A stretch of DNA of 64,000 bases from Candidatus Saccharimonadales bacterium (GTDB taxonomy: Bacteria; Patescibacteriota; Saccharimonadia; Saccharimonadales; Saccharimonadaceae). This document shows, piece by piece, positions 1 through 41,417 of the stretch. Made by a program: the position numbers and the translations under genes. The first letter of the stretch is position 1. Every line of letters begins with the position of its first letter. Location: assembly GCA_038319685.1 (NCBI GenBank), contig JBBQDN010000005.1:15277-79276 (forward strand). The letters run 5' to 3'. A model generated the notes under the pieces. It searched no databases, was not told the origin of the DNA, and worked only from the letters and a program-made list of their open reading frames with translations.

Positions 1-2206
1 TGCCCGGTAAGAATGTGTAGCTTTCTAAGAAGATATCAATTGGCGCACCTTTTTTTACTTCTTTAGATGATATGGTTTTATTTTTAATATTTTGATCGGT
101 CTGTGATGATTGAAAATAAACTGGAATCTGAACAGAATCTTTTGTCGCACTTAGGTCGGGGCATATATCTTGGTCACTGCCTGGACAGATATTATAATCA
201 AATAAACTATCATTATTGACGTTGCCTTCGCGCCAAACCTGCGAAGCTATGGCGTTATTTCCTTTTGAGTTTGGGTGGAATGATTCTTGATTTTCACTAC
301 GACCCCAAGCAGCAATACCTGTTACATACACATCGTCACCGTCACAAAGCTTATGCCCATTAAGGCTATCTTCGATGTTAATATACTTCACACCCGCAGC
401 CTCTGTTGCTTTTTTGATCACATTATTTAAATAACTTACACCCGCTGTTATCATTTGACGCTCTTGGTCATCGAGAAATCCAATGTTTGTACCGCACGAA
501 GCATTCTTATTACTATTTATAAATTGAGGATAGCCAAGAACGTATATTTTAGACAAAGATCCTGATGCAAGATACAAATCTTTATAAAGTGATTTTAAAC
601 TATCAAACTGGTCTTTGATTATACTGGCGAGTGACGACTTACTTTCGTCTGTAGCATATTCGCATGTATTAGGAAAGATTAAGCATTTTTTTATCTTATC
701 AGCAAAACCAACATCATTCCCACCCATAGTTAAAGTAATGACTTTTGGCTTATATTTTTTTACAAACTCAATTTGCTTCTGACGACCGGGGATGAATTCG
801 TTGAGTGCTTGGGTTTTTAAATCGTCCATGCTGTAGCGAATAAGTTGTTTTTCTTGACCTTCGTATAGACTACTCGCTTGTCCTTTTACGTCCCATATTT
901 TTGCACCAGAACACGCTACTGTCGCCCATTGCCTAGGTTCGTTTAATGCCAAATTCATACTACGTGCAAGCAGGTAAGGATACGACCTGGTACTAACGTG
1001 ACATTTTTCACGCGGTCGTCCTAGACTAAAATTCTCTTCTACGTCCGTAAAACTTGTATAATATTTTCGACCAAATTGATCTTGCTCGGTGTCGCCTTCT
1101 CCACTCGAATACGAATCACCTAGGGCGAGGTATTCCAGACGCGGCGCGACATATCCGGGCGCACTGAGGGTAAAAAGTTGGAAGTTATTTGCATTGGGAC
1201 CGCCGTAAAAACTAAATTGTCCGTTATCACCAGAAAACGTATAGTCGGATGTTTCGAAATGCCCACTAACTGGTTCGCCAATGACTGTTCGATCGATATG
1301 TCGACTTTTACAGGCAAGGGAACTATCGAAAGGATCGGCTTCGGATAGGTTGACTGATCCGCAGTCACCTAGATGCCATATATCTATATCAGTCGCCAAA
1401 CCGATGGCGACATACTTGCCGTCATTTGATACGCGGATTTTGGGCCAATATGGCGTCGCCTCATCAAAAGCATGTGGCTCGCCGTAAAATGTTGTTATTT
1501 GTTTTGTTGTAAGGTCAATTAGTTTATACCTCGTGCCAGAACTGCTTGAATTGACCCAGGCTACAAATCGACCGTTTTCCGATTCACCGTGCGCTATCAT
1601 TTCGCTGTGAACATCGCCCGTGTCGTTTGTTTTACTACTTATATACGGCGCGGTTTCGTTAAGATCAAAAATATACTGCGTATAGAGTGATCCCTGTGTA
1701 TCTCGGTGAATATATTTAGAAACATTTTCATATATGCGCATTTCGACATTAAAATATCCCGTTGGATCGGCTGGAAAAATGAATGTGTCTGTTCCTTCGA
1801 CCAAAACACTACTCCAACTGACACCAAGTAGTTTATACATGCGGCGGTCTGACCCAAAACTTACGACCGGCGTATAGTTGTCGTACACGGCGTAGCGTAT
1901 ATGTTCACCGTGTGTCACACATAACTTAGCGTCTACACTAGTGGCAAATCCGGTAACAACCGTGACTGTTTCGTTGATACATTTTCTGTATGAACCACGA
2001 GGAACCGTCCCTCCAAGGGTACTGTCTGATGCCTTCGTCGCTGTTTTTTCGACAGTAATGTTCTGATTATTTGTCCAATCAATTGGATTATCAGTAGCCT
2101 TAACGTTCAGAAATGCCTGCAAGATGCCCGTAATAAAAACAATACTACTTATGCCAAGTAGTAAGGTCGATGAAAAACGTTTTGCGCGCATTCTAGGCCT
2201 TTGCAT
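1..2206 (-). CDS. secreted SGNH/GDSL-family hydrolase with N-terminal PD40/beta-propeller-like region (partial, C-terminus off window)
   Basis: Absent from the supplied track because it has no stop inside the window. My reverse-complement read from ATG 2206 (in-frame ATG also at 2191) stays open to nt 1, giving 735 codons. N-terminus MQRPRMRAKRFSSTLLLGISSIVFITG looks like a signal/anchor. SGNH blocks present: LALGDSYSSGEG (~nt 1094-1129), TLTMGGNDVGF (~nt 706-738), ESFHPN (~nt 270-285). PD40-like RVSNDGKYVAI upstream. Confidence 0.7.
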   Translation of the reverse strand, partial: MQRPRMRAKRFSSTLLLGISSIVFITGILQAFLNVKATDNPIDWTNNQNITVEKTATKASDSTLGGTVPRGSYRKCINETVTVVTGFATSVDAKLCVTHGEHIRYAVYDNYTPVVSFGSDRRMYKLLGVSWSSVLVEGTDTFIFPADPTGYFNVEMRIYENVSKYIHRDTQGSLYTQYIFDLNETAPYISSKTNDTGDVHSEMIAHGESENGRFVAWVNSSSSGTRYKLIDLTTKQITTFYGEPHAFDEATPYWPKIRVSNDGKYVAIGLATDIDIWHLGDCGSVNLSEADPFDSSLACKSRHIDRTVIGEPVSGHFETSDYTFSGDNGQFSFYGGPNANNFQLFTLSAPGYVAPRLEYLALGDSYSSGEGDTEQDQFGRKYYTSFTDVEENFSLGRPREKCHVSTRSYPYLLARSMNLALNEPRQWATVACSGAKIWDVKGQASSLYEGQEKQLIRYSMDDLKTQALNEFIPGRQKQIEFVKKYKPKVITLTMGGNDVGFADKIKKCLIFPNTCEYATDESKSSLASIIKDQFDSLKSLYKDLYLASGSLSKIYVLGYPQFINSNKNASCGTNIGFLDDQERQMITAGVSYLNNVIKKATEAAGVKYINIEDSLNGHKLCDGDDVYVTGIAAWGRSENQESFHPNSKGNNAIASQVWREGNVNNDSLFDYNICPGSDQDICPDLSATKDSVQIPVYFQSSQTDQNIKNKTISSKEVKKGAPIDIFLESYTFLPG

Positions 2207-24100: not shown

Positions 24101-24245
24101 GGTTCGCTGGGTCATTGGCAAATGCCTCGGCGTCATCAGTACCTTGTTTTGCGTAGGCGTCGGGGAACTGTTCGGCAGCTTGAACCTCGCCGGGATTGTA
24201 GGCGGCATCTTGTTCTTCTTTGGTATCGTTAGTTCTCAGAGCCAT
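21153..24245 (-). CDS. 1030-aa membrane protein with C-terminal NlpC/P60 peptidoglycan endopeptidase domain
   Basis: Acidic disordered N-terminus (~110 aa). TM segments GFILALLFGGGGFFAFTSL and IGLIGGLVSSIGTFGISTIVSVGGSLAIGFAMPF. C-terminal DCSGLIRMSIYDAFG ... GDILLRSGHTEIIV is the NlpC/P60 Cys-His pattern. Confidence 0.7.
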   Translation of the reverse strand: MALRTNDTKEEQDAAYNPGEVQAAEQFPDAYAKQGTDDAEAFANDPANHDSGDSSDSGSGKKSNQSSKYDGDGNKNRNDAKDKEENTGGWKNSTTAGGAPASNNRLNFSNISKVFKKKGATGFILALLFGGGGFFAFTSLSILPVQLKETIMGDLDDQLTAMDFRSDHVLRARLSGLSPKLSVCTGVKIRCKFTSMSNRQISKFEKAGFKVERENSPIPGRSKVTGLTTPDGKRMGDPGELTRLAKTDPGLRSALHKAYNPKFAGFSDSIAKKMFANFKTDKSKKVVGATDEERNKAVDNATAGDKAFTGLVDKASVVQEDSNGKYYLDGTDKVYENLPDGTANPRFTEIASNPGQVGHINDIAGAGKKATGGVLKAGFKGLSITGAADTACTVYNTARAVAAAAKITRAIQLAQFAMVFFNFADSIKAGDATDTEANYIGKKLTAVDTTKYATDESTITGADSSGVIQTKQTENPFYGKNALDSPGYKVAAYNEAPTLTSRSAQYMVGGGLTGTLANVLDTIAGVIGAGGGNSKEGRANIRSVCKTVQSWWARTIGLIGGLVSSIGTFGISTIVSVGGSLAIGFAMPFLEASLADIVAGTVVNHDTAGVDAGDAVFAGGGALLGGFAQKRGLQPGNKQTLKSYFAATNEVKQQNIASETYDAKDTPFDITKQYSFMGSLVRKINPTIVGSMSSVSAAMTTIPTFIGTAFSSIIPQANAAQIFNEDRFSKCTDSGYEDVGIDADVFCNVRYVLPNDELNMDSTVAVDYMLDHQQINGDTGEAITDSRYAQWQKSCTDRQAGWGESDEADDNNGVGLGAECLTDGEGGDYKYFRVYNIDNPINDGMDAEVDPSAQGGAGTADGSTVSATAPEACKTLAADDLAQISCHAFKFDDYGYLWGGGHDGTAADFMTKFNAGGFVAGTDSIVDCSGLIRMSIYDAFGVDVGGIATSNMLGNSNFVEVSKADAKPGDILLRSGHTEIIVSNDVAGQKFQQFGAHTQDTAFPKQIGPASGTYGAWEHVLRFKKSGVAA

Positions 24246-24257: not shown

Positions 24258-26153
24258 TTATACGCTATATTCGCCAGGGTTCATGTAGCCAGAATTTGCA
24301 ACTGGTGTCCCCGTGGTCGGCGGTTGATTAGTTGGTTTAACACTATCGGCAGGATTGGTTGAAATGAGATTTTGTTCGGTCTGGGAGGGGACGATTTGAA
24401 TATGGACGTGGTTCTGTCCGGCAAAGAACAACCCCTGTCCAACCGGGAAATTCGCAAGGCGTTTTCGTTCTTCTTCGGTTAATTTAAATACATCTGACAA
24501 AACATCGACAGCACTAGACGATTGTTTTAATAGTAACTGCATCGATGAGTTGGCGACGATTGCCCGACCCATTTTGCTGCCCATGAAATCTTCGACATCT
24601 TGAGTGATCGTGGTGAGTCCGAGGTAATATTTACGGGCACGTTTTGCCAGGCTGAACAAGAAGTTCGCAGAATCATCATATTTCATCAATTGCCACGCTT
24701 CATCGACGATGAGCATGCGCTTTTTCTGAACTGAACGGCAAATATTCCAGATGTGTGACAGGACGATATACATAGCGACTGGACGAAGTTCGTCTTCGAG
24801 GTCACGAATATTGAATACCACCATATTATTATTGATATCGATATTTGATTGCTGGCTAAATATACCAGCAAATGTTCCTGATGTGTATTTACGAAGGCGC
24901 TGTGCCAGTGCAGGACCAGTCCCGCCCATATGAAGGAGTGTATCGTAAAGGTCGGAAATAGTTGGCGGCAGTGAGTTATGGGTTAATGGATCACTCGTAA
25001 TACCGGCACGGGCATAGGTATCAATAAGTCCTTGGTCAAGGTCGGCTTCTTCGGCAGGGGTGAGGGCTGACATCGCCTGCCCTGCGGCGGTTGTTTGCGT
25101 CCCACCAAGCATGAGTCTAAGAAGGCCGTGAAGTGTAACAAGGTTGGCACGGAGGGCGTCATCAGCTTCGTCACTGTCGATCACTCGTGGCAGGTCAAAC
25201 GGGTTAATACGAGTATCGGCGTTCAGACTAAGACGGATGTAGCTGCCACCGACGGCATCACAGAGTTTTTGGTACTCGTTTTCGGGGTCGATGATCAATA
25301 TTTCTGAACCGACCATCATGCTACGGAGGGCCTCAAGTTTAATCGTAAACGATTTACCTGCACCAGATTTTGCAAACACCACCATATTTGCGTTTTCCAG
25401 AGAGAAACGGTCGAAAATAACCAGGCCATTATTATGCATATTAATACCGTACAGCACACCTTTTTCCTGAGTCAGATCGGCGCTGGTAAATGGAAAACTC
25501 GTACTGATCGCACCGGTGTTCATGTTACGACGAATTTGCAGCTGATCGGTCATTTGTGGCACGGTACTATTTAAACCTTGTTCTTGTTGACTACTGGCGA
25601 CCTTACTGAAAATAAGTTGTTGACCAAATAACGTTTCAATTTTGTGTTGTACGAAACTCAGTTCATCAAGGCTGTCGGCGTATAAAGTAACGTAAAGTCC
25701 ATATCGAAAGAATCGTTCTGACCCAACCTGTAGTTCATCGCGCAGTTCCTCGGCGTCCTGTAGGGCTGCTTCGAGTCCAGGATCACGCGTACGACCCTTT
25801 TCGTTGTTGATCGACATGGTTGCTTCGAGCTGCGTTACTTTTTTACGGAGGTTCTGTAATACAACTTGGCTTTCGACCGGATAAATAAACATACTAATAT
25901 CGAGCACTTCGTCGATATTGATTAATGAACTAAGCCATCCAGTGTAAATTTGGCGGGGATAACCATAGATATATAGCGTTCGGCCATATTTTGTTCCGAG
26001 TCGGAAATGACTTGAATGAATTTCGAGACTGCTCGGTGCAATTAGGTCGCGGAGTGTTGTCATGCCCTTTAAAAAGGCTTGTTCGATTTCGGCTTGTTCG
26101 CGTGCACGCTGCTGAGCAGCGATATCAATAGGATCGAGCTGTTTTTTAGCCAT
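24258..26153 (-). CDS. virB4: VirB4-family T4SS ATPase (Gram-positive TrsE/PrgJ/TcpF type)
   Basis: Walker A VFAKSGAGKSFT, Walker B RMLIVDEAWQL, GLTTITQDVEDF, N-terminal YGYPRQIYTGWL pattern. Follows a PrgI-like gene. Confidence 0.85.
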   Translation of the reverse strand: MAKKQLDPIDIAAQQRAREQAEIEQAFLKGMTTLRDLIAPSSLEIHSSHFRLGTKYGRTLYIYGYPRQIYTGWLSSLINIDEVLDISMFIYPVESQVVLQNLRKKVTQLEATMSINNEKGRTRDPGLEAALQDAEELRDELQVGSERFFRYGLYVTLYADSLDELSFVQHKIETLFGQQLIFSKVASSQQEQGLNSTVPQMTDQLQIRRNMNTGAISTSFPFTSADLTQEKGVLYGINMHNNGLVIFDRFSLENANMVVFAKSGAGKSFTIKLEALRSMMVGSEILIIDPENEYQKLCDAVGGSYIRLSLNADTRINPFDLPRVIDSDEADDALRANLVTLHGLLRLMLGGTQTTAAGQAMSALTPAEEADLDQGLIDTYARAGITSDPLTHNSLPPTISDLYDTLLHMGGTGPALAQRLRKYTSGTFAGIFSQQSNIDINNNMVVFNIRDLEDELRPVAMYIVLSHIWNICRSVQKKRMLIVDEAWQLMKYDDSANFLFSLAKRARKYYLGLTTITQDVEDFMGSKMGRAIVANSSMQLLLKQSSSAVDVLSDVFKLTEEERKRLANFPVGQGLFFAGQNHVHIQIVPSQTEQNLISTNPADSVKPTNQPPTTGTPVANSGYMNPGEYSV

Positions 26154-26980
26154 TAGACTGTCTCCTCGCCAGCAACACCAAGCCGTGGAGCTTCGCCTTG
26201 ACCTTTACGAACATAGGTACTGGTCACGGCTTCAAAGTTACCGAGTGGTTCACGAACAGCAGTGTCGGGATTGTACATGTTGTAGTATAGTTCACCTAAT
26301 TCTTTGGTATTAAGCTGAATGCAGCGGACGCCGATTTGAAATAGTCCGCTCATGACTGAATCGGTCCGGTTTTTAATCTCATCTTTGGCTTTGTCGTATG
26401 ACGCTTTGTCAATTTTTGTTGCGCTGACTGTTTGTTTTGCAAACACTTTACCGAAAAATCCCTTACCTTGTTCAACAATATTCGTCAGGTCACCCGCTGG
26501 GAAAAATGGTATGATAACAAAAAAACTCTTGTCCATAATATTTGCTTCTTGGGACAAGATATCGATAAAGTTAATATAGTCATCCATCAGGACGTTTAAA
26601 AGCATATTGTCTTGTGATTTACGAATCATCGACAACCGGTCGATGTATGGGCCAATATCAACGCGCTGTGACCGAATAAAGATTTGTACGGGGAAATACA
26701 GCGCGTTAAGGAAGTTCTGATAGCTAAACTCAACACCTTCGCGTTCACGACTACTCATGAGGTCAAAGTTAATTGACTTACACGCGATGACCGACCTGAA
26801 ACTACCATCGTTCATAATCACCATCCCATCACGGATTTCAGATATCAGCAAACTACTCTGGGTAGAATTTTGCCCAGTTTGTTTTTTGACGACTTCTTCC
26901 TTGTCCTGTCCAGTAGTTGGCACGTTTGCGACAGGCGCAGTCGATGCTTGACCCGGAATTGGTTGATTATTTGGCGGCAC
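26153..26980 (-). CDS. soluble 275-aa protein, possibly VirB4 N-terminal-domain-like; function unknown
   Basis: No TM. The pattern IRDGMVIMNDGSFRSVIACKSINFDLMSSREREGVEFSYQNFLNALYFPVQIFIRSQRVD recalls the non-ATPase N-domain of VirB4/TraC proteins (from memory, unverified). Its stop overlaps the virB4 ATG (TAATG). Confidence 0.3.
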   Translation of the reverse strand: MPPNNQPIPGQASTAPVANVPTTGQDKEEVVKKQTGQNSTQSSLLISEIRDGMVIMNDGSFRSVIACKSINFDLMSSREREGVEFSYQNFLNALYFPVQIFIRSQRVDIGPYIDRLSMIRKSQDNMLLNVLMDDYINFIDILSQEANIMDKSFFVIIPFFPAGDLTNIVEQGKGFFGKVFAKQTVSATKIDKASYDKAKDEIKNRTDSVMSGLFQIGVRCIQLNTKELGELYYNMYNPDTAVREPLGNFEAVTSTYVRKGQGEAPRLGVAGEETV

Positions 26981-27013: not shown

Positions 27014-28042
27014 CTATCGCAGTGATATTACTACTTCATCGTCATGATGTTCTTGTTTTTGACGAATTCGATGAGCTTCGTGTGCGATTGTCTCTATAGA
27101 GAGATCAGAGTTACTTGCAAGGCTTATTATATCAGGAGAGACGTGATTCTCGCTAGTTTTCGTTTCAGTGATTTGCGCGACGGGTGTGGGGCGTGTAACA
27201 GCAGCCTGTGTTGGTCGTGAGACGGCTGTTTGGGGTTGGCTGGCGATTACAGTAGACTGTGGGACAGTGGCCCCTCCGAGTGGCTGTATGACGGTCTGGC
27301 GGATTGCACTTGGGTATGGGTCGAACACGACGTGAGGGTCACTCGCTGGTTGTGCGACGGGAGTCGGGGGGGTGAGCGCAGTGTAGGGATTTGGAATAAC
27401 AACAGGTTCTGGCTGAGGTGTCATAACAGGTGCTGGTTGAATCGCGGATTGGTGCATTTGATTAATCATGTCCTGGCGACGTTTGACGTCAGCTTGACCG
27501 ATCATATTATTAAATGACTGCGATACCTTGGCGTCGTCATCGAGGACATCTTCGGTTTGTTGAGCGGCGAAAAACATATCAGTCACCATTGAATTGTCTG
27601 GACCTGTTGGCATCGGCACGCCACGAACTGCCCAGCCCCCACTATCAACCACACTTGCCAGGTATGAAAGTCTTTTTTGTGCTTCGTTTTGTGAAATATT
27701 TTTCGTACGTTGAATTTCAACTACCTTTGGCGCGGTAATTTCGACCAATGATTGAATACCATCTGGTTCCCATAACCTTCGACGGGGTTTTAAATAAAAC
27801 GACACAATCGCTGCCAGATAAATTTCCATCGGCTGATCTTTGCGCAGCGGCAGTGCTAGTGCACCAAAAAACAGGATGATCGGTAGCGGGATAACCGCTA
27901 GTGGGATGAATAACTGTGCCAGCCCCCACGCTAGCCCACCAGATATCGCAACAATAATTAAATAAATAAATTGGCGAAAGCTAAACGGCCCGATGAGTTT
28001 GTCATCAGCTTCAACATCTTGAGGTACTTTATAGACCGCCAT
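27014..28042 (-). CDS. PrgI/VirB3-like T4SS membrane protein with long P/Q/T/V-rich C-terminal extension
   Basis: MAVYKVPQDVEADDKLIGPFSFRQFIYLIIVAISGG followed by a second TM matches the PrgI-family N-terminus. Positioned upstream of virB4. Confidence 0.6.
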   Translation of the reverse strand: MAVYKVPQDVEADDKLIGPFSFRQFIYLIIVAISGGLAWGLAQLFIPLAVIPLPIILFFGALALPLRKDQPMEIYLAAIVSFYLKPRRRLWEPDGIQSLVEITAPKVVEIQRTKNISQNEAQKRLSYLASVVDSGGWAVRGVPMPTGPDNSMVTDMFFAAQQTEDVLDDDAKVSQSFNNMIGQADVKRRQDMINQMHQSAIQPAPVMTPQPEPVVIPNPYTALTPPTPVAQPASDPHVVFDPYPSAIRQTVIQPLGGATVPQSTVIASQPQTAVSRPTQAAVTRPTPVAQITETKTSENHVSPDIISLASNSDLSIETIAHEAHRIRQKQEHHDDEVVISLR

Positions 28043-28166: not shown

Positions 28167-31100
28167 TTAGCTGCCGTTATTATTACGATTTTCCATATCA
28201 TGGAGCGCATTTTGCATCGAAGCATCTTCATGAGCAATCTCGATATTTGTTTCACGACCTGTTTCTCGTAGTCTGCCGGCATGGTCGATAGCAGTTTGCT
28301 GTGCGCTATCGACGTCGGATACGTAATTTGCCTCACCCTTTGCTCTTGCACTTATGTCTGCAATTGACTGTAGGGCAGCCTTTTCTTTTGTTCCCATGCC
28401 TGCACTAATTTTTTCATTACCGAGTACAGCAGCAGCAGTTTCACCAGTCAGACCTCCAGAGCTAGCTGCAGACTGGATAGCTGATTCAGTTTGTCCGGCG
28501 ATTTGTTCATGAGATAATCCACTCCACGTACTGGCTTTCGAACTCTCGTCTGTGAGTGAAGTGCCGGGTGCTGTTCGTGACCACGCATCTAGTCCAGCGT
28601 CCTTACCCTTAATACCAGCACTCGATATGTCCTTGCGAAGACTTTGACCAAGTTCAGTATCAGTACCTGGATTTGACGTAGAAAGAGTTTCCCTTAGGGC
28701 GGCAACACCCTTTGCTCCTGTTTGACTAGTGAGGATTCCGGCCGCTGCTCGTGCCCTATTGCCAGCAGCACTTCGTACTTGTTCAGATTGACCAGTATCA
28801 TTAGCTGTCGCTATTGCATTTGATAATTCTGTCTGCAAACCAGCTACTAATTGATGCGGTTCAAACTTTGCTTTAAGAAGGAATTCTTCATTCTCAACCT
28901 TTTCCTTATCAATTTTATTGAGCTGTCCTTGTGCTCGAGCCTGATAACCAACTGCGTTTGCACCGGCGACACTTGCTGCAAATTCAGGATCCTTTACTGC
29001 TTTTTTCAAAATTGCTTCATTCTGAAGGTCTTTCAGCTGATCAGTACGCCCGGATCGTTGAGTATCGATGCGGCCTCTTCTCTTTAGTGCTGCTCCGCGA
29101 CCTGGCATTGACCATTTATTTTCATCCAGAGCACGGATACCGCGTCGCGTTTTTTGGTCATCAGCGAATCCACGTGCACCCTTTTTCATACGATCAAACG
29201 GACCTTTGTTTGGGTTATTAACAAATGCGCCAACCTTGCCAAGTACACCACCGGCGGCCTTCATGATGATTGGCGTGAGCGCAAGCGGGACGATTGCGAC
29301 GAGCGCACCCATAATTTGAATTGCAACAATGTAAGGTGGAGAGGATGCTTGTGAGCTGGCAGTAGATATAATAACCTGTGATGCGAGTGCTGATGCTCCA
29401 AACATTAGTCCGATAATAGGAAACATTAATAGCATTGTTTGGAATAGACCTCGCCATTTTTTGAATAATGATTCAGTATTTGGTAATAGAAACGCGACGA
29501 ATGCCAGTGGCGAGATAACGATTAGCAGAACGATAAGCGCTTGTCTAACTGTAAGTACGACGAAAACCGTCACGATCGCCAGTAACGCAACGATAAGCGC
29601 AGGAAGTAACGCAGACAGTGTAATATAGAGCACTGCAGCACCTGCTATAACTGCCGCGGTAGTAAGGCCTAGCCAACCGCTACCACCCGTAGAGGCCCCA
29701 TTAATCGTCGCTGAATCCGGAACCGTTAGACTGCCTGCGAGACCCTTAAAGACACCATTTACAGAAGTCCCGATAATGTTGGATGCATCAACTGCTATCG
29801 AGCATATCCAAAAAGATATATTAACCAGTATTGCTGCTGCAACTAACCTTGGGAGCATTTTTTTTATACCATAGTTAGTGATTCCAACGCTGGTCACTTG
29901 TGAGAAGATAATAATCAAAAAGACAATCACGAATACGACATTTGAAATATTACGCATAGCTGACCATGCGTTATAAATCCCAGTTGAACCCGTAACGACT
30001 GGTTGTACGGTTAGTAAACTCGCGACAATTCCATAGGCGCCATCAACAATACCCGCCATGAATTTAAGGACAGGACAAACAATCCACCCAATACCGTCAA
30101 TCGCACAAGTAGTTGGGTTATCTTTTGTATTGTCGACGGTTGGGTTTGTAGTAATAATACCGTCTGCCCCACCGGCTGCCTTGGTCGCACCGAATTTACA
30201 TGCAGTGTTCCCGGGTATGTCAGGATCCGAAGATGAACTGACAGGGTATGTAATGTCGCAGTATGCTGGGTCTGACTTATGAACAAAGCCAGCGTCACAG
30301 GCCGCTAAACCGATAGCATCTCGCGGATACTGGTCCTTACAAGTGACTGGCTTATGCGTTGCGTACCAGGCTGCATACGCATCGACATTTGGATCCATCA
30401 TGAGAACCTTGATTTGCGCGCAGGTTGGATTGTTGCCGTCACCATTTTCCAGTCCATAGGTATAGATTTTATCGGTATTAAAAGAGATATCTGCCTTTGG
30501 TTTATAGAGCCAATCTTCCCTGGCGCCCGCATCGGTGATAATAGCTACCGCTATGGCACCTGCTTTTTCGTCGGTCGTGGCTGTTGCGACAGACTTTATC
30601 TTGTCAGCACAATACATTTCAAAGGTTGCCTTACCGATATAATATTCTAAGTAGCCCGGAGGGCCTGGGTTACCCGCACCTCCATAGTACTTTATCTCAA
30701 TAGCACGTTTGACCGAGTCTAGCCTCTTACCCGTATCACTTGAAACTGAAAAATCACCCGATCCACCGTCGCCACATGGACTGCCGTTGGTCCGCTTGAC
30801 ATCTGCATTACTAAAGAGGTCGCAGAATGCCTCGGTTTTTCCACTATATCCAAAAGCAGCAAGTGCGCTACTGATGAATCCTGGCTGATCACAATACGAA
30901 GTACCACCATGCTGCCCTGCATCGCCGTTACGAATAATACCAGTCGACACATAATGATCGACACTAAACCATGATCCATTTGCAACATCACCTGCTGATA
31001 TATTGTACGTGTTTCCGACAGGTCTAAACGGAGCTGTTTTAGCACATGCCGCTAGAGCACGGTAGTAGATGAATGCATTTGCTTGATCATCAATTGAAAC

Positions 31101-31208
31101 ATTATCCACGGGGGCCGCAAGTGCGAGATTCGATAGAGAAATAGTACTAATAACCGTCGAAACGATCATCAAAAGTGCAAGTAGTGAGTACTTTATTTTT
31201 GTCTTCAT
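28167..31208 (-). CDS. giant VirB6/TrbL-like polytopic T4SS channel protein, paralogue 1
   Basis: I chose ATG 31208 (MKTKIKYSLLALLMIVSTVISTISLSNLALA signal; AAGG RBS). It has a ~370-aa Cys-rich ectodomain, the motif CAIDGIGWIVCPV, at least 6 TM helices, and a ~400-aa helical/low-complexity C-tail. Confidence 0.6.
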   Translation of the reverse strand: MKTKIKYSLLALLMIVSTVISTISLSNLALAAPVDNVSIDDQANAFIYYRALAACAKTAPFRPVGNTYNISAGDVANGSWFSVDHYVSTGIIRNGDAGQHGGTSYCDQPGFISSALAAFGYSGKTEAFCDLFSNADVKRTNGSPCGDGGSGDFSVSSDTGKRLDSVKRAIEIKYYGGAGNPGPPGYLEYYIGKATFEMYCADKIKSVATATTDEKAGAIAVAIITDAGAREDWLYKPKADISFNTDKIYTYGLENGDGNNPTCAQIKVLMMDPNVDAYAAWYATHKPVTCKDQYPRDAIGLAACDAGFVHKSDPAYCDITYPVSSSSDPDIPGNTACKFGATKAAGGADGIITTNPTVDNTKDNPTTCAIDGIGWIVCPVLKFMAGIVDGAYGIVASLLTVQPVVTGSTGIYNAWSAMRNISNVVFVIVFLIIIFSQVTSVGITNYGIKKMLPRLVAAAILVNISFWICSIAVDASNIIGTSVNGVFKGLAGSLTVPDSATINGASTGGSGWLGLTTAAVIAGAAVLYITLSALLPALIVALLAIVTVFVVLTVRQALIVLLIVISPLAFVAFLLPNTESLFKKWRGLFQTMLLMFPIIGLMFGASALASQVIISTASSQASSPPYIVAIQIMGALVAIVPLALTPIIMKAAGGVLGKVGAFVNNPNKGPFDRMKKGARGFADDQKTRRGIRALDENKWSMPGRGAALKRRGRIDTQRSGRTDQLKDLQNEAILKKAVKDPEFAASVAGANAVGYQARAQGQLNKIDKEKVENEEFLLKAKFEPHQLVAGLQTELSNAIATANDTGQSEQVRSAAGNRARAAAGILTSQTGAKGVAALRETLSTSNPGTDTELGQSLRKDISSAGIKGKDAGLDAWSRTAPGTSLTDESSKASTWSGLSHEQIAGQTESAIQSAASSGGLTGETAAAVLGNEKISAGMGTKEKAALQSIADISARAKGEANYVSDVDSAQQTAIDHAGRLRETGRETNIEIAHEDASMQNALHDMENRNNNGS

Positions 31209-31247
31209 GTCATAAACCTTATGATTACATTTAACAACACTAGACAT

Positions 31248-31282
31248 AAAAATACCAGCCCGTCGTTAGGGCTGGTATTTTT
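31248..31282 (-). terminator. intra-operon hairpin with flanking T/A runs (bidirectional rho-independent-like)
   Basis: AAAAATACCAGCCC-gtcgtta-GGGCTGGTATTTTT. Sits between the 425-aa gene stop (31300) and the paralogue-1 start (31208). Confidence 0.5.
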
Positions 31283-31299
31283 CATTTTAGCAACAAGAA

Positions 31300-32577
31300 C
31301 TACTGCACTGTTAATACGTCTGAGGTGTAGATGGCAGACTCAGTCTTGCCGGTGTTAGGATTTACCACATCGTGTACTACAAAAACCAGTTCCGAGTAAC
31401 CAGTACTATTACCTAGCGCTACTTTAGTAAAGTCGATTGAATAACTCGTTGGGTTTATTGGTTTGCGAATTGAATCTGCAAGAGGCGTAGCTGTCTCATA
31501 TGCAGGAATATCGTCTTGTTGAAAATCATGGCTGTTGTATGCATCGACGGCAGGTTGATATGCTCGAAGACCGACAAAGTTAATACTTTCAAGGTAAAGA
31601 CGTCCAAGCTGTTTGTTTTGCGAGCCAATATAATAAGCAAGGTAATCACGGAGTTTAACATTGTCGAGTACTTTCTGATCTGAGCTATCGACTGTTATAT
31701 CAACAGACTTTTCCAGGTCACTAGCTAGCGCAGGGTCGTCGAGTCGAATCTTAGCAATCGCATCCAGTACATTATTGCGATAAAGGAAAGTGGCCATTTG
31801 ATCAAACTCTTTCCCTGATGCCTCTTTGCTATATGTCAATGGATCCATTTCTGACCAATTTTTCGCAGCGATTTGATTAAAAGATGCTTGGGTTTCGGGA
31901 GATAGTTGATCCCAAAGTCCAGCCCCACCTTTAAGAGGATCATTTTCGGAAACAGTTGTTTCGGGCGTTGTCGTTACTGATGATCCCATATCGCCACTTG
32001 CTGGTACCCCTACTTCGGACGTAGGTGCAGGAGTGGATTCTATAACGACACTAGTTGCGCCTTGTTCGACAGTGCTAGGTGCGAGTGTGCCAGGGATGAC
32101 GGGCGCAGTGGCCGTCGGTTCTACATTTGACGGAGTAGATTCGTTACTAGACGTCGCTGCTTTGATGCCAACTGCTGCACCTACTGTAAATACAAGCGCA
32201 AGCGCACCAATACGAATTTTTGAACCAAGTGACCTAGGTTGTTTGTTGTGTTGTATATGAAGTGCTTCGAGATGAGCACGACCCGCTGCCATTTCAGCAT
32301 CCGTTATTGGGCCGGCACTTTCACTTAAATCCCCAGGAATAGCAAATGGAACTTCCGTATGAACATAGGAACCAACGCCACCTGGATTAGAAATGGTATC
32401 CGGAGCGAGCCAACCCTGATCAGCAACAGCATCAGGAAGACCAGTTTCTCTATAGTGTTTTGTTCCGGGAACCTCAATAGGTTTTCCGTCGGGTCCAATA
32501 AGACCCGAGTGGCGGGCTTGTTCCGCTGCACTACGTGATGATGGTTCTGGGTTTGGTCCTGATGTTTCAAAAGCCAT
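31300..32577 (-). CDS. bitopic membrane protein (cytoplasmic N-domain, 1 TM, S/T/P linker, ~210-aa ectodomain); VirB8-analogue candidate
   Basis: TM IGALALVFTVGAAVGI at ~aa 123-140. The topology is like VirB8/PrgL/TcpC. No sequence motif recognised. Confidence 0.35.
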   Translation of the reverse strand: MAFETSGPNPEPSSRSAAEQARHSGLIGPDGKPIEVPGTKHYRETGLPDAVADQGWLAPDTISNPGGVGSYVHTEVPFAIPGDLSESAGPITDAEMAAGRAHLEALHIQHNKQPRSLGSKIRIGALALVFTVGAAVGIKAATSSNESTPSNVEPTATAPVIPGTLAPSTVEQGATSVVIESTPAPTSEVGVPASGDMGSSVTTTPETTVSENDPLKGGAGLWDQLSPETQASFNQIAAKNWSEMDPLTYSKEASGKEFDQMATFLYRNNVLDAIAKIRLDDPALASDLEKSVDITVDSSDQKVLDNVKLRDYLAYYIGSQNKQLGRLYLESINFVGLRAYQPAVDAYNSHDFQQDDIPAYETATPLADSIRKPINPTSYSIDFTKVALGNSTGYSELVFVVHDVVNPNTGKTESAIYTSDVLTVQ

Positions 32578-32629
32578 GGTTTACAGTTCCTTGTGCGCTT
32601 ACTTGGGCACGTAATGTACTAATGCTTTT

Positions 32630-32658
32630 ACTATACACTATTTTTTAATAAAAAGCAA
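32630..32658 (-). promoter_or_regulatory. sigma70-like promoter upstream of the 425-aa gene
   Basis: On the minus strand: TTGCTT (32658-32653), 17-nt spacer, TATAGT (32635-32630). An AAGGAA RBS precedes ATG 32577. Confidence 0.35.
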
Positions 32659-32711
32659 CATGTTTATTGATATGTCAAGAATTGATTTTAAAAAACGGAT
32701 GTGTTTATGGA

Positions 32712-35318
32712 CTAAATACCAAGTCGGTCACGGATCTCAGGTTTAATGAGACGCAGGGTTTCAGGGCTGGACGTAAGGTTTCCTATGAGTTTCGCATACG
32801 CTACAGGATCTCCAGCTACAGGATCGGTAAGTTTATCAATTGCATGATGCTGCATTGTTGAGTTTGATGCGGCAAACTTATCGGATGCCAAGTTTCTCCA
32901 AGTCGCGATATCTTCATTGATTGTATTAAACGTTACTGTTGGACCCTTGGCGTTGTTAATCCAATCATCGAAGCTCTTTCCGGCCTTACGGATATCGCCA
33001 TTCATACCAAGTACTTCTTTGAAATCGAGTAGATCCTGAGTTGCAGGAGCGCTACTTTCGTAGGTTGTAATAATATCAGCAAGTTTTGCGATACCGGGTG
33101 GGCCATTTTTTGCGATGGTATTTGCATATGCGATGCGCTGAGATAATGTCGTCGACGTATTAAAAGCAGTCTCCAAACGGCCAATGTCCGTCGATAGCGC
33201 GTAGTCCATGGTGTCTTGAATGTTCTTTGTGTCCTCTACGTACGATTGACTAACGGTTGCCTTTGCTCTTGCGAGAACTGAGTTTTGGCCTTGTTCACCC
33301 ATAACTCCACCTGCGAGCACAAGCCGTATAGGATCCGTCTTGAGGGCATCTGCGAGGTCAATTTGTCCAGCACGTTCGGCTTGTTGTTTACGCATTCCTT
33401 GTATTGCAATAGACTGTGCGGTGACATGACTATCACTAACAAGGGTACTCATCGGTGTACCTGCGGCGTACGCAGTGCCACCACGACCACTTTCCCATTC
33501 TTTTGTTTCAGCGTCCCAAGTTGCTTTTGCGTCTTCTGTTTGGCGGGTGGCAAGGTGTTGGGTTAGTCTCTGTGCACGCATACCTGGGTTGGTAATCGCG
33601 TAGCGTTCCTGGTCCGCTTCAACTTGTGCTTCAGACATAGAGACATCTAATTTAGCAATGCGAAGATTCGTTTCATCAGCACGAACTCGGACATTACTGA
33701 GGCGCATATCGTTAAATGCCTTGTCTATAACAGCTTGAGCGGTATCTTTCTTAATACCTGCATGAGTCATACGATGGCTAGCGTCCTGGTAGCCCTTATC
33801 ACCCATACCGTGTGCTTCGGATTCGGCTTCGTAGGCTTTCTTCCATTGTTGTTCGCGCATATGTTTGACGTGTTTGCGCTGGGCACTGGCGCGGAAGGCG
33901 TTACGTTTTGGTGGGGTTGCAAGTGAGCGAGCTTTATGGTGGTCAGCCCGTTCTTTGCTCCAGTTACGGGTACGGTCTAAAATGCCCTTTTTCGGATTGT
34001 TGACCATACCGGCAATACGGCCAAGCAGTGAACCACTCAGTTTAATCAGGAGTGGTGTGATAACAACTGGAGCGATCTGCACCATCATACCCAGGATGAG
34101 AATAACGATTGAATCGGCGTTTTGAATAATCGCCGTTCCTGCCAGCTGCGATCCGCCGAATACGATCGAAAACATCGGGAACATGATCAGGAGGGTCATG
34201 AATGTATCTTTCCATTTATCGAATAATTTTTCAGTATTGGGTAAAAGGAATGCGACGAATGCGAGTGGTGAGAGGATGACAAGAATCGTGATAAGTGCCT
34301 GACGAGCGGCGAGCACGAGGATGGCGACGACTGCTGCGAGCAAGACAATGACCAGTCCTGGAAGGAGTAAGTAGATCGCAGCAGCAAATCCACCACCTGT
34401 TGCAACGATTGCCGAATGAACGGCGATTGCCCCTGCCCCGAGCGCTGTTGCACCACCGAGCACTGCAGCGGTCACGACTTCCCAACCGGTCACGTTCCAG
34501 CTATTCCCAGTGGTTCCGACGATTTGGTTACGAATCGAAATAAAGATATCTTGGATAGAATAGCCAAGGATATTTGACACGTCAACCGCAACCGAACAAA
34601 TCCAGTACGATATATTCACTAAAATAGCCGCGACGATGAGGCGCGGAAGTAGCTTCTTGATACCATAATTGGTCATCATCCCACCAACGAGTTGTGAGTA
34701 AATAATAATGAGGAATGCAATGACAAACGCAACGTTTGCGAAACTTTGCATGACTGACCAAGCACGGTAAAGTGCTGCCTGCTGATTTGTTTGCACCGGT
34801 CGCACTTCGAGGAAACTACTGATGATGCCAAACAGCCAGTCCATTGCTTTGGCGAGGAAATTGGTGACAGGACAGACAATCCAGCCGATACCATCGACCA
34901 CACAGCTTGTCGTGCTGGTTGTGGGACTTGCTGCTGACGGGGTGATATTAACGGTTGATGGTGATGATGGGTTGGTATAGACACCAGGCGGCGTGTAGTC
35001 ATAGGTGACATAGGTTGCGGCGGCTGCTGTCGGCGGATCGGTACCGGGTGCAAAATAAATAACGTAAGCTTTAGACAGAATTGCCGGGGCAATCGGTGCT
35101 GAATCGATAGAAGTATAGTATTTACTACCAGGAGTGATACCAAGGCCATCCGTAGCTGTTGCATCGGTCGGTCCAGTAAAGGTTTTACCGTCGTAACTGA
35201 TTGATTGACCTGTCCACGTAGCGTCGGCAGGAGCAGCATGCGTTGGCTGGACGGTAAAAAGGATACTTGAAAGGATAGCCAAGATGGCGGTCATGGCAAA
35301 AACAAACAACATTCGCAT
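32712..35318 (-). CDS. giant VirB6/TrbL-like polytopic T4SS channel protein, paralogue 2
   Basis: I chose ATG 35318 (MRMLFVFAMTAILAILSSILFTVQPTHA signal; AGGGGT RBS). The track's extra 75 aa run into the divergent promoter region. Contains motif CVVDGIGWIVCPV, at least 6 TM helices and a ~430-aa helical C-tail. Confidence 0.6.
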   Translation of the reverse strand: MRMLFVFAMTAILAILSSILFTVQPTHAAPADATWTGQSISYDGKTFTGPTDATATDGLGITPGSKYYTSIDSAPIAPAILSKAYVIYFAPGTDPPTAAAATYVTYDYTPPGVYTNPSSPSTVNITPSAASPTTSTTSCVVDGIGWIVCPVTNFLAKAMDWLFGIISSFLEVRPVQTNQQAALYRAWSVMQSFANVAFVIAFLIIIYSQLVGGMMTNYGIKKLLPRLIVAAILVNISYWICSVAVDVSNILGYSIQDIFISIRNQIVGTTGNSWNVTGWEVVTAAVLGGATALGAGAIAVHSAIVATGGGFAAAIYLLLPGLVIVLLAAVVAILVLAARQALITILVILSPLAFVAFLLPNTEKLFDKWKDTFMTLLIMFPMFSIVFGGSQLAGTAIIQNADSIVILILGMMVQIAPVVITPLLIKLSGSLLGRIAGMVNNPKKGILDRTRNWSKERADHHKARSLATPPKRNAFRASAQRKHVKHMREQQWKKAYEAESEAHGMGDKGYQDASHRMTHAGIKKDTAQAVIDKAFNDMRLSNVRVRADETNLRIAKLDVSMSEAQVEADQERYAITNPGMRAQRLTQHLATRQTEDAKATWDAETKEWESGRGGTAYAAGTPMSTLVSDSHVTAQSIAIQGMRKQQAERAGQIDLADALKTDPIRLVLAGGVMGEQGQNSVLARAKATVSQSYVEDTKNIQDTMDYALSTDIGRLETAFNTSTTLSQRIAYANTIAKNGPPGIAKLADIITTYESSAPATQDLLDFKEVLGMNGDIRKAGKSFDDWINNAKGPTVTFNTINEDIATWRNLASDKFAASNSTMQHHAIDKLTDPVAGDPVAYAKLIGNLTSSPETLRLIKPEIRDRLGI

Positions 35319-35496
35319 AGAGTTACCCCTATGCGAAACGTACTTTTTCACGTCCCACATACAAATAATAATAGCACTATATGTCATAAAAGTCAATGCC
35401 CCGCGGAGCTTTATACCATATACTATAGTACCAAAAAAACACTCATTGTCGATATTGTTGCCAATCGCGCGTTTTTGTCGTACATTATAGATAGTT

Positions 35497-35904
35497 ATGA
35501 GCCTAAAACAAACAATAAAGATGTCACTACTAGGTACGGTCACCCTGGGTATAATTGGCCTATCGATTGGGACTACTCCGGCATTGGCACAGAGTCAGTG
35601 TGGTAAGGTAAATACTGCGATTATCACCTGTAGTCAACGAGAAACTGGTGACCTCAAAGACAGTGGTGTTTGGGGTATATTGATACTAGTCATTAATATT
35701 ATGACCGCCGGAATTGGTATATTGGCTGTTGGGGCGATTGCCTATGGGGCTATTTTGTATTCAACCGCCGGTGGAAGTGCTGAACAAACGAAAAAAGCAA
35801 TTACTGTTATTACAAATACGGTGATTGGGCTGGTTTGTTTTCTCTTTATGACCGCGATCCTTAATTTCCTGATTCCGGGAGGGATATTTAATGTCATACC
35901 GTAA
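35497..35904 (+). CDS. VirB2/TrbC-like T4SS pilin paralogue P1
   Basis: Signal ...IGTTPALA, a Cys pair (QSQCGKVNTAIITC), then a two-TM hairpin with loop YSTAGGSAEQTKKA. Confidence 0.55.
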   Translation: MSLKQTIKMSLLGTVTLGIIGLSIGTTPALAQSQCGKVNTAIITCSQRETGDLKDSGVWGILILVINIMTAGIGILAVGAIAYGAILYSTAGGSAEQTKKAITVITNTVIGLVCFLFMTAILNFLIPGGIFNVIP

Positions 35905-36595
35905 CGTCACCGTAAAATCACGAATTAAGAACTGGGTACTTGCCATATTTTTTGTTGCATCAACCGGGGGTGCACTGGTGACAACTGCCCTGCCTCAAAC
36001 GGCAAGCGCTGCATGTGCGACAAGTTTTTTCGGGATTCCCGCTTGGTATGACGGAATGATCGGTGGTGATTGTAGGGTGCTTGACCCGTCAAGTTTCCCC
36101 GGAGGTTTGTCGGGATTTATTTGGAGGATTGTCCTGAATGTTGTCGAGATTATTTTACTGGTGTCTGGCTATGTTGCTGCCGCGTTTATAATTGTTGGTG
36201 GGTTTAAATATATTACCAGTGCTGGATCGCCGGATGATTCAGTAAAAGCCAGAAAAACAATCATTAATGCAGTGATTGGGTTGGTGCTTTCGATGTCGTC
36301 GGTGGCGATTGTCAATGTCGTCACAACAACTGTTGTGGGTGGAGTAGATGCGACGGGCATTCCGACAATCAGTGCGGACGGCGTAACACTTGCTGCTATC
36401 CTTAACGCAGTGTATTTCTGGGCGGGTGCAATTGCCGTGCTGATGATCGCTATTGGCGGACTACTGTATGTTGTATCGGGGGGTACTGCGAGCAATATCA
36501 CCAAAGCAAAAGATACAATTATTTATGCATCGGTCGGGCTTATCATTATTATTATGGCGTTTACGATAACACAAGTCGTCATAGGAAGGTTTTAA
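35891..36595 (+). CDS. tandem double-domain VirB2/TrbC-like pilin P2
   Basis: Signal ...LPQTASA, a Cys pair, then two consecutive hairpin modules: GGFKYITSAGSPDDSVKARKTIINAVIG and GGLLYVVSGGTASNITKAKDTIIYASVG. Confidence 0.55.
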   Translation: MSYRNVTVKSRIKNWVLAIFFVASTGGALVTTALPQTASAACATSFFGIPAWYDGMIGGDCRVLDPSSFPGGLSGFIWRIVLNVVEIILLVSGYVAAAFIIVGGFKYITSAGSPDDSVKARKTIINAVIGLVLSMSSVAIVNVVTTTVVGGVDATGIPTISADGVTLAAILNAVYFWAGAIAVLMIAIGGLLYVVSGGTASNITKAKDTIIYASVGLIIIIMAFTITQVVIGRF

Positions 36596-36596
36596 T

Positions 36597-36965
36597 ATGA
36601 AAAAAATGAAACAATATGTCATGATGTTTGCGCTGGCCACGTGCCTGGCGGTTAGTGCTATTGCACCTGTTTACGCAGTAAACGTATTCCCTGCCTGTTC
36701 GGTTGATCCTGGGTCTGAGGTTTGTAAGGCGGCTGGAACCGACAGAGCCGACAGTACGATAAAAACCGTGATTAATACAGTCATTTATATTATCGGTATT
36801 GCGGCGGTCATCATGATTGTTATCGGTGGCCTGCGCTATGTTTTGTCGGGTGGTGATTCATCGGGAACTAAAGGTGCGAAGGATACGATCTTGTACGCAG
36901 TTATTGGTCTGGTGATCGCTATTCTGTCGTTTTCGATTGTTAACTTTGTCGTTGGGAGATTTTAA
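36597..36965 (+). CDS. VirB2/TrbC-like T4SS pilin paralogue P3
   Basis: Signal ...IAPVYA, Cys pair ACSVDPGSEVC, and hairpin IGGLRYVLSGGDSSGTKGAKDTILYAVIG. GGAAGG RBS. Confidence 0.6.
   Translation: MKKMKQYVMMFALATCLAVSAIAPVYAVNVFPACSVDPGSEVCKAAGTDRADSTIKTVINTVIYIIGIAAVIMIVIGGLRYVLSGGDSSGTKGAKDTILYAVIGLVIAILSFSIVNFVVGRF
36799..36857 (+). repeat. 59-nt tract identical to 37196-37254 (pilin P3 vs P4)
   Basis: By eye, ttgcggcggtcatcatgattgttatcggtggcctgcgctatgttttgtcgggtggtgat is identical in both genes. A 3-nt indel follows, then high identity continues. Confidence 0.85.
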
Positions 36966-36966
36966 T

Positions 36967-37365
36967 ATGAAAGTAATAAAAAGGAAGTATATGAAAAAAC
37001 TACAGATGATTATTGTGAGCTTCGTTGCATTATTTGCGATTGGTGCGGGAAGTTTAGTACTTAGTCCACAAACGAGCTATGCAACTCCGGCGGATGAAAT
37101 CAAAAAAGGCGTGACGAATGTTGGTGGCGGCACCAGTGGAACGCTTGACGCGGGTATCAAAAATGCCATCAACGTGATCCTGTATGTCACCGGTGTTGCG
37201 GCGGTCATCATGATTGTTATCGGTGGCCTGCGCTATGTTTTGTCGGGTGGTGATAGTTCATCGACCAAAGGTGCGAAGGATACAATTCTGTATGCTGTAG
37301 TGGGACTTATCGTGGCGATTATCGCGTATGCGATTGTTAACTTTGTCGTCGGTGCGTTTAGCTAG
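36967..37365 (+). CDS. VirB2/TrbC-like T4SS pilin paralogue P4
   Basis: Start is ATG 36967 or 36991 (both have an RBS). Signal ...PQTSYA, no Cys pair, hairpin IGGLRYVLSGGDSSSTKGAKDTILYAVVG. Confidence 0.6.
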   Translation: MKVIKRKYMKKLQMIIVSFVALFAIGAGSLVLSPQTSYATPADEIKKGVTNVGGGTSGTLDAGIKNAINVILYVTGVAAVIMIVIGGLRYVLSGGDSSSTKGAKDTILYAVVGLIVAIIAYAIVNFVVGAFS

Positions 37366-37409
37366 CCCCGTAAACTAACATATTCAGGAAAGCATAAGCC
37401 AAATGGCTA

Positions 37410-37438
37410 TTAACAAATAGCGCCCAATCTGCTATAAA
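37410..37438 (+). promoter_or_regulatory. sigma70-like promoter for pilin P5
   Basis: TTAACA (37410-37415), 17-nt spacer, TATAAA (37433-37438). An AAGAAAGGAA RBS precedes ATG 37473. Confidence 0.35.
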
Positions 37439-37472
37439 CTAAAGAGAGTAAATCCTAAGAAAGGAATTAAAA

Positions 37473-37880
37473 ATGAAACGAACATTAAAGAAAATAGCTC
37501 AGAGCCTCCTTCTGGTTCCAGTTGTTGCACTTGGTGTAAGCCTGGCGCTTCCAGCCGTTGCCCCAACAAACGCGAACGCCGCATTCAATGGCGGTATCAG
37601 CAACGGTGCAGCTGACAGTAAAGGTACTGGCCAACAAGATAATCTTGATGGTACGGATGGTGTGTTTAAAACCGTCACAAACGTGATGCTGTACATCATT
37701 GGTGCGATTTCTGTCATCATGTTGATCATCGGTGGTATCCGCTATGTGGTATCAGGTGGTGAAAGCAGTGCAGTTACCGGTGCAAAAAACACCATTCTGT
37801 ATGCGGTTATCGGTATTATCGTTGCGATCATTGCGTACGCACTGGTCAACTTCGTTATTACAAGTTTCTCAGCACCATAG
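37473..37880 (+). CDS. VirB2/TrbC-like T4SS pilin paralogue P5
   Basis: Signal ...PTNANA and hairpin IGGIRYVVSGGESSAVTGAKNTILYAVIG. Confidence 0.6.
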   Translation: MKRTLKKIAQSLLLVPVVALGVSLALPAVAPTNANAAFNGGISNGAADSKGTGQQDNLDGTDGVFKTVTNVMLYIIGAISVIMLIIGGIRYVVSGGESSAVTGAKNTILYAVIGIIVAIIAYALVNFVITSFSAP

Positions 37881-41259: not shown

Positions 41260-41296
41260 CCAGGATTCCTTTCGTGGTTTAGATAATATATTTACC

Positions 41297-41324: not shown

Positions 41325-41417
41325 CCCTCCGCCCCTGTAGTGTGCTACAATAATTCGAGCACGGGAGAGTTATATATGGCAAAAAGCCACCCTATATACC
41401 CGCGCCGACGATCACAC

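Follow-up and report, generated by a model that had tools for sequence, protein, structure and literature searches.

Two large genes of a Candidatus Saccharimonadales bacterium (assembly GCA_038319685.1, contig JBBQDN010000005.1, positions 15,277 to 79,276 of the forward strand) were analysed together with their surroundings. The window is the whole stretch of 64,000 nucleotides (64 kb), and all coordinates refer to it. An earlier sequence-only reading had proposed that the two genes encode giant VirB6-like paralogues. The genes and the elements now recognised in their products, with the evidence used for each, are as follows:

28167-31247, minus strand: paralogue 1, an extended VirB6-like protein of clade 1 (open reading frame (ORF), AlphaFold2 (AF2) model, Foldseek)
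31116-31208, minus strand: paralogue 1 signal peptide, MKTKIK followed by a hydrophobic region and ALA/AP (read from the sequence)
30108-31115, minus strand: paralogue 1 ectodomain, about 335 amino acids (aa) with 10 Cys, predicted alpha/beta fold (AF2, Cys alignment)
30042-30107, minus strand: paralogue 1 motif C-x3-G-x-G-W-x2-C-P ... D, heading an amphipathic helix (alignment of 150)
29178-30107, minus strand: paralogue 1 VirB6-like hydrophobic core, about 310 aa (BLASTP, TrwI profile match, core hidden Markov model (HMM) 453 bits)
28170-29177, minus strand: paralogue 1 cytoplasmic helical tail, about 336 aa, predicted ARM/HEAT-like repeat (AF2, Foldseek, HHalign)
32712-35387, minus strand: paralogue 2, an extended VirB6-like protein of clade 2 (ORF, AF2, Foldseek)
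34905-35234, minus strand: paralogue 2 ectodomain, a predicted beta-sandwich of about 95 aa plus an S/T/P linker, no Cys (AF2)
33972-34904, minus strand: paralogue 2 motif and VirB6-like core (BLASTP, TrwI matches, core HMM 497 bits)
32715-33971, minus strand: paralogue 2 cytoplasmic helical tail, about 419 aa (AF2, charge, HHalign)

The two genes very probably encode two non-redundant VirB6-family subunits of a chromosomal, origin-proximal Saccharibacterium type IV secretion system (T4SS). As part of the same judgement, both subunits would follow a shared plan of signal peptide, extracytoplasmic N-domain, Cys-x9-Cys 'GxGW' motif, a core of about 310 aa and a helical-repeat tail.

Both ORFs of the sequence-only reading are real at the coordinates it gave and lie on the minus strand, which it had left unstated. 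Its sizes of 1013 and 868 aa fit the starts it used (31208 and 35318), and longer starts are possible for each: paralogue 1 would measure 1026 aa from its first ATG (31247), and paralogue 2 (stop at 32712) could also begin at 35360 (882 aa) or at 35387, the choice of the gene caller (891 aa). Position 35360 ('MWDVKK') is where most orthologues begin in alignment A4 and, judged from sequence, is the most likely start. The proposed paralogy was borne out by BLASTP, which aligned the two proteins at 43% identity over 355 aa (E 1e-92), with the likeness confined to the hydrophobic core; the shared 43%-identical core amounts to about 310 aa. The two motif versions CAIDGIGWIVCPV and CVVDGIGWIVCPV were both found as given, and LPRL..AAILVNIS.WICS.AVD.SNI is present in both paralogues as described. 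No third copy of the core or of the motifs was found in the window.

VirB6 identity was assessed from sequence, from predicted fold and from gene context. In searches of the Protein Data Bank (PDB), TrwI/VirB6 was the sole match of paralogue 2 (phmmer, E 0.015) and also of a core profile built from 20 sequences (E 0.037, 242 profile positions), whose alignment takes in the conserved P-L-x-F...W segment. Among the family cores, Pfam TrbL was the commonest weak match (10/20, best E 9.5e-4). The TrbL/VirB6 signal in these sequences is sub-threshold but specific and reproducible. A full-length family profile had returned low-complexity coiled-coil matches from the tail only, and the core-only profile was used instead; an NCBIfam match to the 'MAG1210 family' (E 0.4) was dismissed. 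The AF2 models had a mean predicted local distance difference test (pLDDT) score of 80 for paralogue 1 and 76 for paralogue 2. For both models the best Foldseek matches among membrane proteins were the TrwI/VirB6 chains 8rt9_F and 8rtd_L (probability 0.92 for paralogue 1 and 0.96 for paralogue 2, template modelling (TM) score 0.36-0.42, about 290-314 columns), and matches in the Foldseek viral library (BFVD) included phage proteins named TrbL/VirB6. The modelled core fold has moderate similarity to solved VirB6. Because weak but specific sequence matches, fold matches and gene context agree, homology of both proteins to VirB6 is well supported, though remote.

Several points weigh against this interpretation. 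Pfam TrbL (PF04610) gave no match to paralogue 1 and reached 6.5 bits on paralogue 2 (E 8.8, cutoff 25.9 bits), so that neither protein attains its threshold; the VirB6 reading made earlier is upheld by the TrwI sequence and fold matches, the weak TrbL matches of the family cores and the T4SS context. The Foldseek E-values to TrwI/VirB6 are about 0.1, with a root-mean-square deviation of 10-12 Å, and the predicted TM scores of 0.38-0.42 make the relative placement of domains in the AF2 models unreliable. Most homologues bear a precomputed PF19590 label, but hmmscan of five of them against the current Pfam failed to give it, and it was left unused; it was found on neither window protein, and no paper was found to mention it. 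In R388 just two VirB6 helices are truly in the membrane (PMC9259494), a caveat for the topology given below. Oligomerisation, co-assembly, disulfides and contact with pilins or host are properties that we infer.

Across the family the Cys motif takes the form [ST][ST]-C-x3-G-[IVL]-G-W-I-[VI]-C-P...D. C381, G387, C391 and D402 are invariant in 150/150 family members, and W388 and P392 are kept in 148/150 (P0001 numbering; that of the sequence-only reading is 13 lower). Conservation of this degree, as read from the alignment, is far beyond chance. Because the motif lies N-terminal to the whole part of the profile that aligns with TrwI, it is specific to this family.

Hydropathy and the AF2 helices describe polytopic proteins with at least five hydrophobic helices and a predicted N-out/C-in orientation. 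Mean net charges over 150 sequences were -8/-4 for the ectodomain, +2 for the KK loop, -1.5 for the long loop, +1.2 for the PNTE..KKWR loop and +8 to +10 for the start of the tail. The N-out/C-in topology is supported by the signal peptide, the positive-inside charges, the mostly even number of Cys in the clade 1 N-domains and the Cys-free tails. This prediction agrees with the sequence-only reading, which had placed the N-domains outside and the tails inside, and the agreement comes from the charge pattern and the Cys distribution. The signal peptides it had named were also found in both proteins, each with a basic n-region, a hydrophobic h-region and a conserved A-x-A/A-P site at which the -1 Ala is invariant or nearly so; in paralogue 1 this residue is A44, which is invariant in 66 aligned proteins.

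Earlier estimates for the extensions needed some adjustment. The C-tails, put at about 400 aa, helical and charged, are indeed predicted to be helical, with lengths of about 336 and 419 aa and no Cys; zero Cys were found in the C-tails across the family. In paralogue 1 the tail carries a net charge of +10 over its first 60 aa, and residues 740-970 were modelled with pLDDT >90 and gave weak matches to importin/armadillo folds. By HHalign, the clade 1 and clade 2 tails are homologous to each other (probability 96%, E 3.5e-9, 178 columns). The ectodomain of paralogue 1, given before as about 370 aa and Cys-rich, is Cys-rich, with a mature size of about 335 aa and 10 Cys in addition to the 2 motif Cys. 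An alpha/beta domain is confidently predicted for residues 45-380 (pLDDT >90 over about 50-330), and Cys columns 68/119/142/158/213/276 are kept in 17-24 of the 24 orthologues that share this type of domain. The paralogue 2 ectodomain is more than the Pro/Thr-rich stretch claimed for it: a confidently predicted beta-sandwich, with eight strands at residues 56-148 (pLDDT about 88-92), precedes a short S/T/P linker. Neither ectodomain had a Pfam, NCBIfam or PDB sequence match, and full-length (uncropped) models gave no Foldseek match for them in PDB or BFVD.

Both proteins belong to a widespread family. Paralogue 1 has at least 803 homologues, all from Saccharibacteria, the best being 58% identical, and paralogue 2 has 3004; the close homologues of both all come from Candidatus Saccharibacteria/Saccharimonadales. 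The family is very large in metagenomes, since the core profile matches 21,557 cluster representatives (50% identity clusters). At two loci (L003 and L032) a full gene pair of Saccharibacteria type was seen in metagenome-assembled genomes (MAGs) labelled Verrucomicrobiia and Chloroflexi; these contigs are probably mis-binned.

The 75 top matches of each query separated perfectly into two clades (75/75), with identities of 63-68% within and 47% between them. Of 77 Saccharibacteria loci, 34 had a pair of core-bearing ORFs within 10 kb of each other and in the same orientation, and 32 of these were classed as one per clade. Synteny is kept out to complete oral Nanosynbacter genomes. As part of the joint judgement given at the outset, the two copies are very probably old and non-redundant paralogues. 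In oral Nanosynbacter and relatives (L031, L034, L038, L040, L062-L067 and L075) the order of the paralogues is reversed, with the long-ectodomain copy first, about 45-120 bp between the copies and no gene between them; the second copy at these loci scores almost equally on both clade HMMs. In the complete genome of Ca. Minimicrobia vallesae (L074, 7732-9445) the long-ectodomain VirB6 is split into two overlapping ORFs (7732-8310 and 8021-9445), which may reflect a frameshift, a pseudogene or an assembly error.

The N-domains of the two clades differ in how they vary. Those of clade 2 are one sequence family in 165/168 cases, about 150 aa long including the signal peptide, and those of clade 1 fall into 23 sequence clusters of 46-490 aa, with an even Cys count in about 94%. 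HHalign of the clade 2 N-domain against the two main clade 1 length classes, of about 344 and 178 aa, detected no mutual homology. These sequence patterns suggest that the clade 1 N-domain is swappable, has been exchanged repeatedly and may be stabilised by disulfides. Between the window proteins and their nearest orthologues, identity was 52-55% in the ectodomain, 72-77% in the core and 37-48% in the tails. The ectodomains thus diverge faster than the core but no faster than the tails, so that nothing points specifically to faster evolution of the ectodomain at this depth, at which synonymous sites are saturated, since the nearest orthologue is just 52% identical in the ectodomain.

The genes around the pair that relate to the secretion system are the following:

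35497-37880, plus strand: five tandem VirB2-like T4SS pilin genes, divergent from paralogue 2 (Pfam PF18895)
31300-32577, minus strand: 425-aa bitopic protein between the paralogues (position)
27014-28042, minus strand: PrgI/VirB3-like protein (Pfam PF12666, E 7.7e-12)
26153-26980, minus strand: TrsD/TraD-like (VirB4 N-terminal-like) protein, 275 aa (NCBIfam NF041427, E 2.8e-6)
24258-26153, minus strand: VirB4 ATPase, 631 aa (NCBIfam conju_CD1110, 368.5 bits, cutoff 325; Pfam P-loop_TraG)
18293-24245, minus strand: genes for three proteins, of 1030 aa (weak NlpC/P60 match), 163 aa and 791 aa (a hydrolase) (Pfam; same order in L001 and other loci)

On the minus strand the order of transcription is paralogue 2, the 425-aa protein, paralogue 1, PrgI/VirB3, the TrsD-like protein and VirB4, and the operon ends with the 1030-aa protein, the 163-aa protein and the hydrolase with GH3, lysozyme and C39-like parts. 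A monoderm-type set of VirB3/PrgI, TrsD, VirB4, VirB6 and wall hydrolase is therefore present together with an array of VirB2-like pilins, and the same arrangement is found in strain ML1 and in at least 30 Saccharibacteria loci. The 425-aa protein had no Pfam, NCBIfam or PDB sequence match; from its gene position we infer that it is the counterpart of SEML1_0012, an NTF2-like, VirB8-like protein (PMC10633639 Table S2). The TrsD-like ORF ends and VirB4 starts with a 1-nt overlap at 26153. A frameshifted VirB4 as the origin of the 275-aa and 631-aa ORFs was considered and rejected, as the same split occurs in all relatives examined and in the literature, and the L001 orthologue of the TrsD-like protein has a PF26593 TraC-like match. 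PF18895 matches were significant for 4/5 pilin ORFs (E 1e-16 to 6e-9), and the ORF at 35497-35904 scored E 0.006, below the curated cut-off. No coupling protein or relaxase was found among about 45 window ORFs scanned with Pfam/NCBIfam, in which the small ORFs and six Pfam-orphan ORFs are unassigned, and no VirB9, VirB10, VirB11 or VirD4 family was found in the scanned ORFs.

Only 1.5 kb separates the end of the T4SS operon from dnaA (12971-14329), dnaN and a recF-like gene (together 12971-16745, plus strand), which places the whole T4SS at the replication origin, as reported for Patescibacteria. In two complete genomes (L065 and L074) the locus lies at 2.5-24 kb.

Some further observations were made on the surrounding genes. 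The 791-aa protein (18293-20668, minus strand) joins a GH3 N-terminal domain, a phage tail lysozyme and a C39-like peptidase, an unusual triple fusion kept in L001. The five tandem pilin copies have diverged, and in the gene at 35891-36595 the pilin repeat occurs twice. Another 3 kb on, past an HSP20 gene and a phosphoribosyltransferase-like gene, lies a sixth pilin gene (40852-41382, minus strand), and beside it are a CRP/FNR-type regulator (41673-42344, minus strand) and a baeRF family-10 release-factor-like protein (42653-43420, plus strand). At 45593-57147 (minus strand) there is a run of co-directional ORFs, of which the six largest (339-900 aa, 47082-57147) have no Pfam family at E<=1e-5; they make up an orphan-gene block downstream of the T4SS region.

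The closest known systems are those of cultivated Saccharibacteria. In Ca. Southlakia epibionticum ML1, SEML1_0006-0019 form an essential T4SS cluster (PMC10633639), in which SEML1_0011 (998 aa) and SEML1_0013 (1088 aa), both with ARM-like tails, flank the small NTF2-like gene (PMC10633639). The labels they received from Foldseek are 'Type IV secretion system protein' and 'TrbL/VirB6', and both turn essential in transposon sequencing (Tn-seq; PMC10633639 Tables S1/S2). In Nanosynbacter lyticus, TM7x_00055 and TM7x_00060 are both annotated virB6 and show opposite regulation (bioRxiv 10.1101/2022.03.25.485537). ML1 and TM7x resemble the window in the series of pilins, VirB6-like protein, small gene, VirB6-like protein, PrgI, TrsD-like protein, VirB4 and large hydrolase-like protein, as well as in protein sizes, ARM-like tails and origin-proximal position. 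They are different species from the window, which belongs to an environmental Saccharimonadales lineage. Compared by gene order, size and annotation, the ML1 and TM7x gene pairs are probable orthologues of the window pair. Oral Nanosynbacter differs in starting with the long-ectodomain copy and in having the two genes directly adjacent, and the Cys-rich ectodomain of the window is one of many clade 1 N-domain types. The origin-proximal monoderm-type T4SS of Patescibacteria has been described, and that survey speaks of 'the detected virB6 gene' with no discussion of duplication (PMC12102498).

TrwI/VirB6 of R388 (PDB 7O3V, 8RT9, 8RTD) is the only solved structure matched by both sequence and fold, over about 240-310 core residues, and like the window pair it adjoins virB3/virB4. 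It differs in its length of 342 aa, in having no signal peptide, ectodomain, Cys motif or cytoplasmic tail, and in sharing only about 15% identity; it also belongs to a diderm system that includes VirB5 and VirB7-10, all of them absent at the window locus. In Rickettsiales, VirB6 proteins (RvhB6 / VirB6-1..4) occur as tandem paralogues with large hydrophilic extensions on a VirB6 core. The sequence-only reading had drawn this comparison, which holds as an analogy only; the actual relatives are T4SS of monoderm type from Patescibacteria. The Rickettsiales proteins serve a diderm alphaproteobacterial P-type T4SS with VirB8-11/VirD4 and have mainly central or C-terminal extensions; no homology between these extensions and those of the window pair was found, and none was expected, and the two enlargements of VirB6 are independent. 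Extended VirB6 has been described as a class (PMC12857230). The VirB6-like proteins of Gram-positive MPF-FA systems (such as Tn916 Orf15; 700-900 aa) share with the window pair the monoderm setting, a VirB6 core with extra domains and their size (PMC12857230). Their extra parts are described as unstructured (PMC12857230), whereas the N-domains and tails of the window proteins are confidently predicted to be folded; and MPF-FA systems are conjugative, with coupling protein and relaxase and without pilins, whereas the window has pilins and neither of the other two was found among its scanned ORFs.

Three other explanations were weighed against that of two non-redundant VirB6 subunits. The paralogues could be alternative platform subunits, not co-assembled but used at different stages of the life cycle (host encounter and attachment versus stable symbiosis), one operon thereby giving two T4SS variants. 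This agrees with TM7x, in which one virB6 is up-regulated when the host is first encountered and the other in stable symbiosis (bioRxiv 10.1101/2022.03.25.485537), with the Tn-seq calls in ML1 (SEML1_0011 ES/ES/ES versus SEML1_0013 NE/ES/ES; PMC10633639) and with some MAGs that carry the two copies on different contigs. However, the genes are co-directional within one operon and separated by short gaps in the window and at most loci, which argues for co-expression; ML1 requires both genes (PMC10633639); and core and tail are kept in both clades, consistent with shared partners. Such stage-specific use of the paralogues is considered unlikely.

The extensions might instead be lineage-specific structural spacers with no dedicated role, the core alone being important. 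In favour, some clade 1 N-domains are nearly missing (46-61 aa including the signal peptide), and ectodomain and tail diverge much faster than the core (26-55% versus 60-77% identity). Against it, 165/168 clade 2 N-domains belong to a single conserved family whose length is fixed, the tails have stayed homologous since an old duplication and are modelled with pLDDT >90, and the Cys pattern of the ectodomain type in the window is conserved. Mere spacers are considered very unlikely. It is extremely improbable that the proteins are polytopic transporters or polymerases (ABC-2 type permease or oligosaccharide repeat-unit polymerase) that happen to lie at the locus. KEGG K01992 (ABC-2 permease) is assigned to both ML1 homologues, a single database entry bears the name 'oligosaccharide repeat unit polymerase' and the Pfam TrbL score is sub-threshold; against this, the neighbouring genes include none for an ABC ATPase, neither protein scores with any transporter or polymerase family in Pfam or NCBIfam, VirB6 is the sole match in PDB by sequence and fold among membrane proteins, and the genes keep a strictly conserved place between the pilins and PrgI/VirB4.

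For the preferred explanation of two VirB6 subunits in one T4SS, a mechanism can be proposed by analogy with R388, where VirB6 is a pentamer whose helix alpha1 recruits VirB2 (PMC9259494). As in TrwI/VirB6, the cores would oligomerise atop the PrgI(VirB3)/VirB4 ATPase complex and form the membrane platform or stalk base, which would recruit the VirB2-like pilins through the first core helix and begin the translocation path. The tails may dock cytoplasmic partners (VirB4, substrates), the N-domains would project into or through the wall, and the Cys-x9-Cys/GxGW motif would head an interface helix. As VirB5 is absent and one of the two N-domains is variable and probably rich in disulfides, a role of the clade 1 ectodomain as tip or in host contact is possible. 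A more specific version, which we consider quite unlikely, is a mixed VirB6 ring in which the clade 1 ectodomain replaces VirB5 as a wall-spanning stalk or tip, with the multi-pilin pilus growing beneath it, and contacts the host surface, with the Cys/GxGW element as a hinge or collar to the pilin-recruiting helix. If such a ring exists, exchange of the clade 1 ectodomain type would help to set host range.

Cultivated strains already have annotations for this gene pair, and the current picture of the system is unchanged; what seems to be new, as description of a known component, is the division into two clades, the invariance of the Cys motif, the predicted folding of the N-domains and the homology of the tails. 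Saccharibacteria, tiny bacteria that live on other bacteria, need this T4SS to grow on their hosts, a requirement known from ML1 alone (PMC10633639). No T4SS before it had been shown to be essential to the survival of its owner, and it is unusual in combining a machine of Gram-positive type with pili. The old, conserved VirB6 pair with its shared build, the invariant extracytoplasmic Cys motif, and one conserved and one highly variable N-domain offer handles for mutagenesis in the genetically tractable ML1 and for the interpretation of cryo-electron tomography maps.

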